This document shows, one piece after another, positions 225-4,040 of a stretch of 43,706 nt of DNA (the stretch's first letter is position 1; each line of letters opens with the position of its first letter). This DNA comes from Pseudomonadota bacterium (GTDB lineage: Bacteria; Pseudomonadota; Alphaproteobacteria; Rickettsiales; UBA3002), in contig JBEHYI010000001.1 of the NCBI GenBank assembly GCA_048498255.1, forward strand, positions 1 through 43,706. Reading direction: 5' to 3'. Below the pieces are notes generated by a model that saw only the letters and a list, made by a program, of their open reading frames with translations, did not search any database and was not told the DNA's origin. Made by a program: the position numbers and the translations under genes.

Positions 225-1385
225 ATGACCACCATTTCCGATAGTATGCTCGACAGTATGACGGCACAAGTCGCCGACATGCGCGCGCAGATGAAGGCGG
301 AGCTCGATGTCATGATCGGCAAACCGGCGGATTGGGAGGCACAGAAAGAATCTTCGGGCGATTCCCTCGCGGATCAAGGCGCTATCAATGCCCTGCAAAG
401 CGAAGCCGATACGATGGTCGAAAAAGCAAACAAGCTGCTGGGCGATGTGCAGCATATGCTCGACAATGCGGGCCAGTTGGATGAAGAAAGCCGCGGTGAG
501 CTCGATCATGTGCGCGACCAGGCCAACCAGATGAAAGACGCGGCGGAGCAAACGCAAAAAGAAATTGCCAATGCCCTGCCGGATGCGAACGGAAAAAAAC
601 GGCTCCCGGCCTCGAAGGTAAGCGCGCTAATCAACACGATGCATCAAATCAATATCGAGGCGGGTGACGAGATTACCGAGCTTGATAAAGTAGCCGTGCA
701 TGTGCAGGCGCATAAGGCCGAAATGGCAGAAAAGGCGGCGGCTGCGAGCCATGTAAAACCCACAGCCGTGGCCAGCAAATCAACGAAAAAACCATGCGCA
801 GGCAAGGTGAAAGCTGCCTGCACCGCGCCGGGTTTGGTGAAGACTGCGCAGCATGACACGCATACGGGGTGGATGGGCGCCACCTGGCACGGCATCGAAG
901 AAACTGCAGAAAAAACGAAGCATTATTTTGGCGATGTGACGCATAGCGTGATCGCAGGCATCAGCGGTTTGGCGGCGGAAGCGGCCGATTGGGAGCCCGT
1001 GCGCGAGACGCGCGCCTTCCTTGCCCATCCGATCACCTCGACCAAAGTTGCCGTCGCGAAAATGGCCAAAATTGTGGGCGATACGGCGGATGCGGTGGTG
1101 GTGAAGCCGGTCAAAAATTTTGTGCATGCGGGGCATCAAATGCTGAACCATGCAGGCGATAAAGTGCATCAAGTCATCGAGCGATTCACCCATGGTCCGG
1201 CGAAAAAAACCGCCATCGCGCATGTGCAGGCCAAGGGCAGCGCGCATGCAAGTGTGGCGCATGCCCATCAGCAAGTGAAGGGCATGCATTGGCCCAGCTT
1301 AACTCTTGAAGATGCTTGGGAATTTGTCTCGCAGAGTCTCCCGGGGCATCACCCATCCGTTAACCCCTTAATTCATGATCATTAA
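225..1385 (+). CDS. Hypothetical protein, 386 aa. Acidic/Gln-rich helical N-terminal part, His/Ala/Lys-rich C-terminal half, no signal peptide or TM segment seen
   Basis: Longest ORF in the region, with GC-rich third codon positions like the housekeeping genes. The competing ORFs 120-557(-) and 780-1289(-) are antisense shadows. No family recognised. The SD is weak, so the exact start is uncertain. Confidence 0.6.
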   Translation: MTTISDSMLDSMTAQVADMRAQMKAELDVMIGKPADWEAQKESSGDSLADQGAINALQSEADTMVEKANKLLGDVQHMLDNAGQLDEESRGELDHVRDQANQMKDAAEQTQKEIANALPDANGKKRLPASKVSALINTMHQINIEAGDEITELDKVAVHVQAHKAEMAEKAAAASHVKPTAVASKSTKKPCAGKVKAACTAPGLVKTAQHDTHTGWMGATWHGIEETAEKTKHYFGDVTHSVIAGISGLAAEAADWEPVRETRAFLAHPITSTKVAVAKMAKIVGDTADAVVVKPVKNFVHAGHQMLNHAGDKVHQVIERFTHGPAKKTAIAHVQAKGSAHASVAHAHQQVKGMHWPSLTLEDAWEFVSQSLPGHHPSVNPLIHDH

Positions 1386-1397
1386 CGGTATGTTAAC
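1382..1397 (+). promoter_or_regulatory. Perfect CtrA-box consensus TTAA-N7-TTAAC
   Basis: ttaa cggtatg ttaac lies 53 nt upstream of ATG 1450. A one-mismatch second site, TTGA-N7-TTAAC, is at 1424-1439. Confidence 0.55.
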
Positions 1398-1449
1398 GTA
1401 AATCTGATAAGCTTAGATAAAATTTGATGCAATTTTAACCAAAAGGCGT

Positions 1450-4014
1450 ATGGCAGAAATCGACGAACAGGAGCTCGGGCCGAAACATCAGCAAGTGACT
1501 GCGGATGCCGCTATCGAGGAAACTGACGACGCCGAGCAGCAACGTGCCCGCAAAATCATCGACGACCAGATCGACCTGATTGCGCGCGATAGCAGTATTC
1601 AGCCTGCGTCGAAACGTGATGAGCTTGTCGCCAAATTGCTAGCCCTGCGCGGCGGTAAAATCAGCCTCGCCGATATCGCGAATGTGCTGGCTGAAGTGAA
1701 AACGGAAGCCGACCATGCGCGCGCCGAGGCAAATGCGGATAGGGCTGAACAGTTTGCGGAGTTGATGCATTACGCTTCGTACCATTTGAATGCCCACCAA
1801 AGTGCACAGATTGAGCATTATTCGCGCCTAACACTGGATATCAGCGATCCACAAAGCGTGGATGCCTACGCCCGCGCCATGATCGATGCGGATGTGCCGC
1901 AGGAAATGCGTGCGGAGTTGGTCGAGGTGAATAAGCGCCTGCTGCTCGATCCCGATCAACAGGAAATTAACGCGCAGATCAACCTGGCTTCGCCGGAAGA
2001 GCGTCGCGCAGTATTCACTGCAATCAAGCAGCAAGATCTCTATTTCCGTGCGGCAGCGCAGGACCCGCAATTGGCAGCGATGTCGGATGAAATTCGTCTT
2101 GCCAGACATTTGCACACGGTAACGCGCGGCGAGCTGGCAGCGACGATTGAAAAAGCGCGCAAAGGCGAAATCAGCGCAGAAGAAGGCGCGCAGCTACTAC
2201 ACGAGAAAACCGAATCCAAATTGAATCAGGCAGGAACGGACCTTTCCAAGCTGAAAAAACATTTGAGCCCCTCTGCCCAAAATAATATTGGCTCGCCGCC
2301 ACCGGATGCGTTGGCAAAAGATGTTGATCGGGCAATGACGAAAAGCGAGCAGCATAAGCCGCTCACGCGCCGTGACCATGATTTGGTTGTCCTTGGCATA
2401 TCATGGGATGAGTGCAAAAAGCGCGGGCAAGCTGCTGCAATTCTTGCGCAAAAAACTGCGCAAAAGACGGTTGAAGTAACGGGCGAAGCCATCGAATATG
2501 GCGGGCATAAAATTGACCTTGCGACCAAGCAGGGCAAGCAAATGGGCGCTGCCTACACGGCCATCTATGCCCTCGATATCAACAACCTCAACGCCACGCC
2601 GGAGCAGCGTGTGAAGCTAGCGCAGGATTACATCAAGGCCCATCGCAGTGAGTATAAGGACCTCGACGATGCGACCCTCGAGCTTTGGTCGAAAAAGGCG
2701 CTGATCGACACGCAGCACAAGCGCAACGATATCCGTTTTGCGCAGCGCGCGGCGGTGATTCAGTTGATGGCGGATGTGGATTCTTCGTTGCCGGATGAGT
2801 GGCAGAAAGACCCGCAAAAGCGCGTGGAGCGGATACAGGCGGCACTCGCTGCAAGTAAGTTACCGACGGATCATTTCGCACCGAGCGACATGCAATTTGC
2901 GCAAACGGAAGCACTGAAACAAGCCCAACAACGCCGCGATGCCGAAAGCCGCCGCGAGCAGGCGCTGGTGCTGCAAAAAGCCATCGCGGTGGATTACGCG
3001 CTGCCGGATGAAGCGCCGGGCAGTGACCGCGCGAGCCGTGTTGCCCGTATCCGTGAAGCGCTGATACGTGACAAGGTGCCGACTGCCTATATCCACGCCG
3101 CGGATCTCGACAAAACCATTGAAGCGGGCCTCGAGCAGGCGCAGAAAAACCGCAATGCCGAAAGCAAGCGCGAGCAGGAAGTGGTGAAGCGCACGGCGCA
3201 TGATGTGAGCCTGCAATTTGGCGATATCGCGCACACGGATAAGGCGTTGGTGAATGAGCGCATCCGCGAGGCGCTGGCGAAGGAAAATATCAAAACCGCT
3301 TACATTCACCACGACGATTTGGATAAGACCATCCAGAAGGGCGTGAGCGATGCCAAAAACGAGCAGGGCACCGCGGCGGTGAATAACCGTAATCATAACC
3401 GGCATATGGCGGAGCTTGAGCGCAATGCCAAAGCCTACCGCGACCAAGCGAAAGATGCGGGCAAGGGGCTGGCTGGTGTAGCAGGCAGTTTGGCGGCCCA
3501 TGTCGATTTCGATAAGGAGCACCGCGTCACCAAAACGGCGGCAGGCATTGCGCAGAATATCGGCGAGGGCGCTTATAATTTTATGGGCGGCCTAAACGAT
3601 GTTCTCCGCACGGGTTTAAAAATTACGCATGCCCCGCAGCATTTCACCCCAAAAGAAGTGCATGACGACATCCGCGATATTTTGAAAGACCCGAAACAGC
3701 TCGCGGCATTGATGAAGGACCTTACGCAGAGCGGGGTGGCAACGGCGCGCCTGCACCTCACCGGTAATCCGGAACAGGACGCCAATACCGTCGTTGGTTT
3801 GCTGAATGCCGGCCACAAAGACATGATCAAATACAATGCCAACAAAAACGAAAAACTCGACGAGAAAGAACTCGCCGCCGCGCTGAGCGATGCGCTGAAA
3901 GCAGGTGCGACCGTGCCGGTGCAAGTAGCAGCCGGTGCCCATGCCGTACCGGGGCAGCAAATTGCGAGCGCCGCGCAGCCCACCAAGGGCCAGCAAACCC
4001 ACCGCCAGAGCTAA
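1450..4014 (+). CDS. Hypothetical 854-aa protein, mostly helical/charged, with internal degenerate tandem repeats and a C-terminal EF-hand-like module. Paralog of the next gene
   Basis: ATG preceded by aaaagg SD. Native-looking codon usage. Shares with the 4135-5949 product an ASPEER(R/K) segment, an N-terminal S..P.S.(R/H)(D/K).L..(K/R)L.AL segment, and a C-terminal KDM(I/M)...EF-loop...G(A/V)T.P...HA.P tail. Confidence 0.75.
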   Translation: MAEIDEQELGPKHQQVTADAAIEETDDAEQQRARKIIDDQIDLIARDSSIQPASKRDELVAKLLALRGGKISLADIANVLAEVKTEADHARAEANADRAEQFAELMHYASYHLNAHQSAQIEHYSRLTLDISDPQSVDAYARAMIDADVPQEMRAELVEVNKRLLLDPDQQEINAQINLASPEERRAVFTAIKQQDLYFRAAAQDPQLAAMSDEIRLARHLHTVTRGELAATIEKARKGEISAEEGAQLLHEKTESKLNQAGTDLSKLKKHLSPSAQNNIGSPPPDALAKDVDRAMTKSEQHKPLTRRDHDLVVLGISWDECKKRGQAAAILAQKTAQKTVEVTGEAIEYGGHKIDLATKQGKQMGAAYTAIYALDINNLNATPEQRVKLAQDYIKAHRSEYKDLDDATLELWSKKALIDTQHKRNDIRFAQRAAVIQLMADVDSSLPDEWQKDPQKRVERIQAALAASKLPTDHFAPSDMQFAQTEALKQAQQRRDAESRREQALVLQKAIAVDYALPDEAPGSDRASRVARIREALIRDKVPTAYIHAADLDKTIEAGLEQAQKNRNAESKREQEVVKRTAHDVSLQFGDIAHTDKALVNERIREALAKENIKTAYIHHDDLDKTIQKGVSDAKNEQGTAAVNNRNHNRHMAELERNAKAYRDQAKDAGKGLAGVAGSLAAHVDFDKEHRVTKTAAGIAQNIGEGAYNFMGGLNDVLRTGLKITHAPQHFTPKEVHDDIRDILKDPKQLAALMKDLTQSGVATARLHLTGNPEQDANTVVGLLNAGHKDMIKYNANKNEKLDEKELAAALSDALKAGATVPVQVAAGAHAVPGQQIASAAQPTKGQQTHRQS
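2596..3369 (+). repeat. About four degenerate tandem coding repeats of roughly 52-72 aa inside the 854-aa protein
   Basis: Repeated pattern R(V/I)(E/A)RI(Q/R)(A/E)AL...(K/V)(P/T)TAYIH..DLDKTI..G...A(Q/K)(K/N)...AES(R/K)REQ at aa 383-446, 447-517, 518-589 and 590-640. Confidence 0.6.
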
Positions 4015-4024
4015 TTTCAGCCGC

Positions 4025-4040
4025 TTAACGCTTCCTTAAC
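4025..4040 (+). promoter_or_regulatory. Perfect CtrA-box consensus TTAA-N7-TTAAC
   Basis: ttaa cgcttcc ttaac lies 95 nt upstream of ATG 4135, in the 120-bp gap between the two paralogs. Confidence 0.55.

Follow-up and report, generated by a model that had tools for sequence, protein, structure and literature searches.

The window analyzed here, a stretch of 43,706 bases of chromosomal DNA, carries two perfect copies of TTAA-N7-TTAAC, the binding consensus of the cell cycle regulator CtrA, each located in the spacer upstream of one of two neighboring orphan genes (open reading frames 2 and 3 [ORF2 and ORF3]). With a probability of about three in four, we consider these boxes to be activator sites for CtrA or its orthologue, within promoters that would lack a -35 element. 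This reading, already put forward in the initial annotation of the sequence, is supported by the uniqueness of the sites, by the alphaproteobacterial affiliation of the host, by conservation of the box across related genomes and by its spacing to a putative -10 hexamer. We infer CtrA as the binding protein from the identity of the motif together with taxonomy and the class-wide conservation of the pathway; activation, transcription starts and the timing of expression are likewise predicted. According to the proposed mechanism, each box, a direct repeat of the form TTAAC-N6-TTAAC, would substitute for the -35 element. It would be separated by 10 nt from a weak -10 hexamer of the type TAnnnT and would cover roughly -39 to -24, where a bound dimer of phosphorylated CtrA (CtrA~P) would recruit the RNA polymerase holoenzyme containing the housekeeping sigma factor. 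Transcription of ORF2 and ORF3 would then be on when CtrA~P is high, which would correspond to the predivisional or motile phase of other alphaproteobacteria. The promoter would have been duplicated along with the gene, with box 2 arising with ORF3 by tandem duplication, and a weaker box of like design would drive an ORF of 123 amino acids (ORF123) across queH.

A computational scan of both strands of the window returned exactly two matches to TTAA-N7-TTAAC, both on the plus strand (Table 1), and omitting the final C from the consensus added no site anywhere in the window. The gap to the start codon is about 52 to 53 nt for box 1 (ATG of ORF2 at 1450) and about 94 to 95 nt for box 2 (ATG of ORF3 at 4135). 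The site coordinates, the distances of 53 and 95 nt and the absence of any other perfect site on either strand, all given in the initial annotation, were thereby reproduced, and a rescan for equivalent sites in coding DNA found no perfect one in the window. The TAA stop codon of ORF1 (1383-1385), the gene preceding ORF2, sits inside the first half-site of box 1, while box 2 starts 10 nt past the stop codon of ORF2. Both boxes fit the longer pattern TTAACG-N5-TTAAC, in which the half-site recurs in the same orientation after 11 bp, and thus have 11 specified bases in common and not 9. When one mismatch was allowed, nine matches were obtained, all within positions 1381-7151 and seven of them intergenic, with none in the other 36 kb. 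The half-site TTAACCAT has a single match in the window, which falls in coding sequence and is uninformative.

The two boxes are not chance matches, because of the intergenic excess of such sites, their clustering at 1381-7151 and the low base rate elsewhere. Dinucleotide shuffles of the whole window gave a mean of 0.13 perfect matches, and two matches were reached in 2 of 100 shuffles. Region-by-region shuffles of the 7,087 bp of intergenic DNA gave a mean of 0.06 perfect sites (P = 0.006 for two or more). As an empirical base rate, we counted perfect sites in the mutS-region loci of 80 other alphaproteobacteria, where 1.62 Mb contained three (0.18 per 100 kb); the corresponding figure for the window and its close relatives is 4.25 per 100 kb, or ∼20-fold higher. 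A purely accidental origin, in AT-rich DNA, from the stop-codon context or by recent duplication, and without regulatory role, would draw on the AT-richness of the two spacers (31% and 41% GC), on the TAA stop codon within box 1 and on the tandem paralogy of the genes, through which a single chance site could have been copied. We regard this as highly improbable, given that the local base composition predicts only 0.003 to 0.004 sites for each spacer, that sites are so rare in other alphaproteobacterial loci and that both half-sites are intact even though the proteins have diverged to 27% local identity and the flanks are unalignable. Moreover, the box is kept in seven related genomes with differing spacers, and this divergence of spacers and proteins rules out very recent common ancestry as the source of the conservation.

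The conservation was assessed in nine related genomes or contigs (designated by L numbers), whose syntenic loci were fetched using MaeB homologues as anchors. Most of these loci share the gene order maeB, small ORF(s), queH, ORF2/3-family gene and ORF1-like gene. A perfect or one-mismatch box was found upstream of, and on the same strand as, the ORF2/3-family genes of L081, L084, L085, L086 and L089 and both such genes of L091, these genes being assigned by homology except for L089_888 and L091_782, which are positional equivalents. The boxes in L081, L084, L085, L086 and L089 are positional equivalents of box 1, and in several relatives the stop codon of the ORF1-like gene lies within the box, as it does in the window. 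L091 parallels the window in having two tandem paralogues with one perfect box each. When the nine upstream regions, which are orthologous or paralogous to each other, were aligned with MAFFT, the only columns without variation were those of the TTAAC and TTAA half-sites, those of the start codon and four scattered A columns. The half-sites form the sole invariant block of this alignment; the six-base spacers between them are all different and the flanks vary. The window and its relatives, 247 kb in total, contain 13 perfect matches, of which 12 lie in intergenic DNA and one falls on a stop codon. Matches with one mismatch number 30 in intergenic and 6 in coding DNA. As an independent measure, a 34-nt matrix covering the box, the spacer and the -10 element was built from 19 sites of the relatives only and scanned over the window. 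It ranked the site at 1382 first (31.4 bits), the one at 4025 second (26.6 bits) and a minus-strand site at 7095->7080 third (19.8 bits), with all other positions at or below 14.8 bits. A distant alphaproteobacterial locus (L006), retrieved by a scan with MutS, contained no sites. Conservation is stronger for the box than for the proteins that it is predicted to control.

The arrangement of the box relative to a putative -10 element points in the same direction. When 22 perfect or near-perfect sites were aligned on the box, a TAnnnT hexamer was found 10 to 11 nt after it in nearly all cases (including TAAGCT, TAATGC, TATATT, TAAATT, TAAGTT, CATAAT and TATACT), often preceded by GC as in GCTAAGTT. 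The arrangement seen at box 2, with the box followed by 8 nt and GCTAA, also occurs upstream of the gene after mutS in L085, L086, L087 and L090. A conserved TTAGATAAAA block was considered as an alternative -10 element and rejected, as only TAnnnT at +10/11 is common to the 22 sites, box 2 included. Placing the hexamer at -12 to -7 gives the box a predicted span of about -39 to -24, with its 5' end near -38/-39, and transcription from the box 2 promoter would start near 4063. No TTGACA/TATAAT promoter was detected at either site by a scan with the sigma-70 consensus, which would fit promoters that depend on an activator and lack a -35 element. In activated promoters of Caulobacter, the 5' nucleotide of the full CtrA motif lies near -35 to -39, overlapping the -35 region, and at -39 in the case of ctrA P2 (PMC4287350, PMC11264516). 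The window boxes resemble the CtrA-activated promoters of Caulobacter crescentus (for example, those of ctrA P2, ccrM and the class II flagellar genes) in the 9-base consensus, in the 11-bp direct repeat co-oriented with the gene, in the single site per promoter and in the predicted position of the box 5' nucleotide (∼-38/-39), 10 to 11 nt upstream of a GCTA/TAnnnT -10 element. They differ from them in belonging to an uncultured small-genome lineage (order o__UBA998 for a relative) and in their targets, which are lineage-restricted orphans and not flagellar, division or methylation genes. Reuse of a conserved motif upstream of lineage-specific genes has a parallel in the CtrA regulons of other alphaproteobacteria, such as Ruegeria, Dinoroseobacter, Hyphomonas and Sinorhizobium, which consist mainly of motility and lineage-specific traits; a link to motility or the cell cycle would here be by analogy only.

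The same promoter geometry bears on whether CtrA, if bound, would mainly repress transcription or form a roadblock, for instance to reduce the read-through that reaches ORF2 and ORF3 from the Pho-type promoter ahead of ORF1. Such a role would fit the overlap of box 1 with the ORF1 stop codon and the lack of a terminator between ORF1 and ORF2. It would also fit a near-site at 1424-1439, downstream of the predicted start, in a layout like the two-site repression at the Caulobacter hemE Ps promoter, and CtrA has both an activating and a repressing effect on several promoters of Caulobacter (PMC11264516). The fixed distance of 10 to 11 nt to TAnnnT across the 22 sites, some of which have no co-oriented gene upstream, argues that the box is part of the promoter, and the near-site is not conserved in the relatives. 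We therefore hold predominant repression to be quite improbable. The near-site itself had been listed as a one-mismatch site next to the first start codon; it is indeed present in the window, but its second half-site is not conserved in the aligned regions of the relatives and it scores 10.1 bits with their matrix. It is doubtful, and may be an operator or a chance match.

The boxes could, on the other hand, be real and conserved and yet be bound by another winged-helix regulator of the OmpR/PhoB family or by a lineage-specific factor recognizing TTAAC repeats. This would agree with ctrA not being observed in the window or the fetched loci and with the nature of the targets, which are lineage-specific orphans and not classical genes of the CtrA regulon. 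It would further agree with the occurrence in the same cluster of a second type of 11-bp repeat, GTCA-N7-GTCA, implying that several OmpR-type sites operate there, and with an intermediate repeat, GTAAC-N6-GTAAC, in L085 and L086. We nevertheless judge a different binding protein to be unlikely, since the motif equals the CtrA consensus at nine of nine specified positions and the promoter geometry is that of the Caulobacter CtrA-activated promoters. To our knowledge, no other alphaproteobacterial regulator uses TTAA-N7-TTAAC. The CtrA pathway is, in addition, described as conserved across the Alphaproteobacteria (PMC7200025).

The host is, as judged from its sequence relatives, an uncultured, small-genome alphaproteobacterium. 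The window, which is part of a chromosome, carries queH, maeB, mutS, plsX-fabH, merR, two PAS-MCP genes, amtB and corA, as well as lipA, rpoZ-spoT, pdxJ and acpS, and the plsX-fabH-ihfA-merR and rpoZ-spoT synteny is present. Its class was assigned because of the relatives of its MutS and MaeB proteins and the Genome Taxonomy Database (GTDB) class of one relative. In a scan with MutS over one genome per species, the best 80 matches were almost all alphaproteobacterial by record title, with at most 49% identity (one was a metagenome-assembled genome [MAG] titled Candidatus Marinimicrobia), and no homologues of the orphan genes were found at the loci of these 80 matches. Many closer relatives were found with MaeB (83 to 91% identity), all of them MAGs labeled Alphaproteobacteria, Rickettsiales or Pseudomonadota bacterium. 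One of these, GCA_017302575.1, is a single contig of 1.86 Mb, placed by its authors in GTDB as c__Alphaproteobacteria; o__UBA998; f__UBA3002 (PMC8103865).

Several points weigh against the boxes being activator sites for CtrA. A search that covered the window and all fetched loci found none of ctrA, cckA and chpT, so that the presence of CtrA in the host genome is assumed from taxonomy and the class-wide conservation of the pathway. There is also no canonical gene of the CtrA regulon (flagellar genes, ccrM or ctrA itself) available in the lineage to show the same motif, and the two PAS-MCP genes of the window lack a good site, the best one, ahead of the MCP gene at 33508-35241, reaching 10.6 bits. 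The -10 hexamers TAAGCT and TAATGC are weak and the transcription starts are predicted ones. Finally, boxes 1 and 2 probably represent one ancestral site that was duplicated and not two independent occurrences. The original argument that two such hits in adjacent promoter regions are unlikely to be due to chance thus holds in its outcome, but counting them as two independent hits overstates the statistics, for which the conservation across genomes more than compensates.

No gene for an OmpR-type response regulator was found in the window or the fetched flanks. Among other signaling genes, a hybrid kinase with REC-HisKA-HATPase architecture is encoded at 23697-24890. At 43028-43477, a minus-strand ORF of 149 amino acids, whose product has a histidine phosphotransfer (Hpt) domain, overlaps a plus-strand ORF of 136 amino acids without a domain, and the minus-strand Hpt gene is probably the real one.

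We searched for relatives of the predicted targets, ORF2 and ORF3. A word-index search with both proteins retrieved no homologues besides themselves, and a HMMER pass over 1.84 billion representatives found only six relatives of ORF2, namely two full-length proteins (42% and 36% identity) and four of 493 to 628 residues that match only the N-terminal ∼250 residues. ORF2 and ORF3 had been described as adjacent paralogs; their direct similarity is weak (BLASTP E = 0.006, 27% identity over 142 residues), and the relationship holds through intermediate family members. Because phmmer links the two proteins via the chains ORF2-P0130-L081_727-ORF3 and ORF2-L084_614-L091_576-ORF3 (with E values from ORF3 of 1e-34 to L081_727 and 6e-34 to L091_576), we classify them, on the basis of these matches, as distant paralogues in tandem, belonging to a single family that evolves fast and is restricted to the lineage. 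A DxxxxGxxxxxEL loop is retained near the C terminus in the consensus of this family. Residues 548-571 of ORF3 match the Pfam model EF-hand_6 with 19.9 bits, under the 25-bit cutoff, and EF-hand_1 is weakly matched by 2 of 12 family members. Searched against PDB sequences, the family profile gave weak matches to lanmodulin and an EF-hand protein (E = 0.013 to 0.027). An AlphaFold2 model of ORF2 is all helical (pLDDT 72.5, pTM 0.36), and a Foldseek search of the PDB with this model yielded no meaningful match (best E = 0.09, TM score of <0.2).

The sites themselves would be ordinary CtrA-type promoter elements; what is new is the target, an orphan family with an EF-hand-like loop, and the uncultured lineage. 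If the CtrA reading is true, a deep, uncultured order of alphaproteobacteria shares the CtrA motif and the geometry of its promoters without change, and the boxes provide a first regulatory handle on the orphan genes, whose expression would be tied to a CtrA-controlled cell cycle or motile phase, with that of neighboring genes tied to phosphate supply. This would aid annotation and the selection of candidates from metatranscriptomes, while leaving knowledge of CtrA itself unchanged.

TABLE 1 Boxes, repeats, predicted promoter elements and genes in the window and in related loci
Feature	Position	Strand	Sequence	Remarks
CtrA-type box 1	1382..1397	+	TTAACGGTATGTTAAC	Perfect match
CtrA-type box 2	4025..4040	+	TTAACGCTTCCTTAAC	Perfect match
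Third box	7080..7095 (7095->7080)	-	TTTACCCTATGTTAAC	One mismatch; 41 nt upstream of ATG at 7038
One-mismatch site	1424..1439	+	TTGATGCAATTTTAAC	Downstream of predicted start of box 1 promoter
Predicted -10 hexamer, box 1	1408..1413	+	TAAGCT	10 nt after box 1; putative start near 1420
Predicted -10 region, box 2	4049..4056	+	GCTAATGC	Hexamer TAATGC at 4051-4056, 10 nt after box 2
L081 box			TTAACGAAATATTAAC	116 nt to ATG
L084 box			TTAACGGAATATTAAT	109 nt to ATG
L085 box			TTAACCAGATCTTAAC	113 nt to ATG
L086 box			TTAACCAATTATTAAC	115 nt to ATG
L089 box			TTAACGCTAAATTAAC	110 nt to ATG
L091 box, first paralogue			TTAACTTTTTGTTAAC	71 nt to ATG
L091 box, second paralogue			TTAACCAAAAGTTAAC	186 nt to ATG
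ORF1	225..1385	+		386 aa; first gene of orphan cluster; homologous to L081_415 and L084_398
ORF2	1450..4014	+		854 aa; all-alpha orphan; EF-hand-like loop near C terminus; no Pfam match
ORF3	4135..5949	+		604 aa; distant ORF2 paralogue; C-terminal EF-hand-like loop (residues 548-571)
ORF123	6667..7038	-		123 aa; orphan; candidate third target gene, downstream of third box
GTCA-N7-GTCA repeat, Pho-box-like	157-171	+	GTCACGAAACTGTCA	Followed after ~10 nt by GCTAGAAT; 53 nt upstream of ORF1
GTCA-N7-GTCA equivalent, L081	17595->17581
GTCA-N7-GTCA equivalent, L085	16420->16406
GTCA-N7-GTCA equivalent, L086	16563->16549
GTCA-N7-GTCA equivalent, L087	15145->15131
GTCA-N7-GTCA equivalent, L089	15375->15361
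GTCA-N7-GTCA equivalent, L091	15110-15124
GTCA-N7-GTCA equivalent, L091	20537->20523

The third box is followed after 10 nt by TATACT (7069->7064, minus strand), from which a start near 7057 on the minus strand is predicted, and it has equivalents in near-consensus sites adjoining the 3' end of maeB in L081, L082 and L089. Its candidate target, ORF123, has no Pfam match and does not detectably resemble the small ORFs that occupy its place in the relatives.

ORF1, which has no Pfam match, is preceded not by a CtrA-type box but by a Pho-box-like repeat, the only match to GTCA-N7-GTCA in the window. The Pho box, the binding site of PhoB, consists of CTGTCAT-N4-CTGTCAT located 10 bp upstream of the -10 element. 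It is similar to the CtrA-type box in being an 11-bp direct repeat that is bound by a regulator of the OmpR family and replaces the -35 element, and differs from it in the half-site (GTCA versus TTAA), such that the two window boxes do not match the Pho box. In the relatives, GTCA-N7-GTCA lies upstream of ORF1-like and of some ORF2/3-like genes, sometimes proximal to the CtrA-type box. The repeats suggest phosphate-responsive control of the same orphan cluster, and their position proximal to a CtrA-type box suggests modular control by two response regulators. As a tentative extension of this idea, in which we place little confidence, the fast-evolving and repeatedly duplicating all-alpha EF-hand family and its neighboring orphans might be phase-specific, phosphate-responsive secreted or surface factors, for instance of a host-, prey- or surface-associated stage, under the control of two OmpR-family regulators acting at separate boxes, the distal one for CtrA and the proximal one Pho-like.

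Further repeats were observed in the window and in the relatives. A direct repeat, AAATCGGG-N4-AAATCGGG, lies just 5' of the ORF3 start at 4101-4120, a position that equals that of the proximal Pho-like promoter of the relatives. Upstream of the genes for 490 and 518 amino acids in L085 (15052-15110) and L086 (15370-15430), a proximal GTAAC-N6-GTAAC is followed by TGTGnTA, an extended -10 element; the GTAAC half-site is intermediate in sequence between TTAAC of the CtrA-type box and GTCA of the Pho-like repeat. In L081, a relative of 2.35 Mb, three half-sites phased by 11 bp (TAAACCGATCC TTAACCATTCC TTTAC; 18928->18902, minus strand) are located 43 nt upstream of an ORF of 65 amino acids and could form a multisite CtrA-type operator.

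The relatives also have a single orphan gene of 443 to 579 amino acids after mutS, with a conserved upstream site consisting of (G/A)TAATGATTTGTTAAC, 8 nt and GCTAAGTT. In the window, this gene appears to be split into an ORF of 56 codons (13644-13814) and one of 390 amino acids in another frame (13960-15132), which could be due to a frameshift, to decay into a pseudogene or to an error in the assembly, and its upstream site (13603-13645) is degraded to GTCACTGTTTATTAAC, with 12.9 bits. The next-best matrix scores, weak at 13 to 15 bits, fall in the divergent intergenic region at 37114-37180 between an ORF of 279 amino acids and a LysR regulator gene; this region has 23% GC, and the scores are probably an effect of base composition. 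At the beginning of the window (positions 1-80), an inverted repeat, ggggatgacggc ... gctgtcatcccc, is followed by gcgaaggcggggatcc and resembles a hairpin or an element of the repetitive extragenic palindrome (REP) type.

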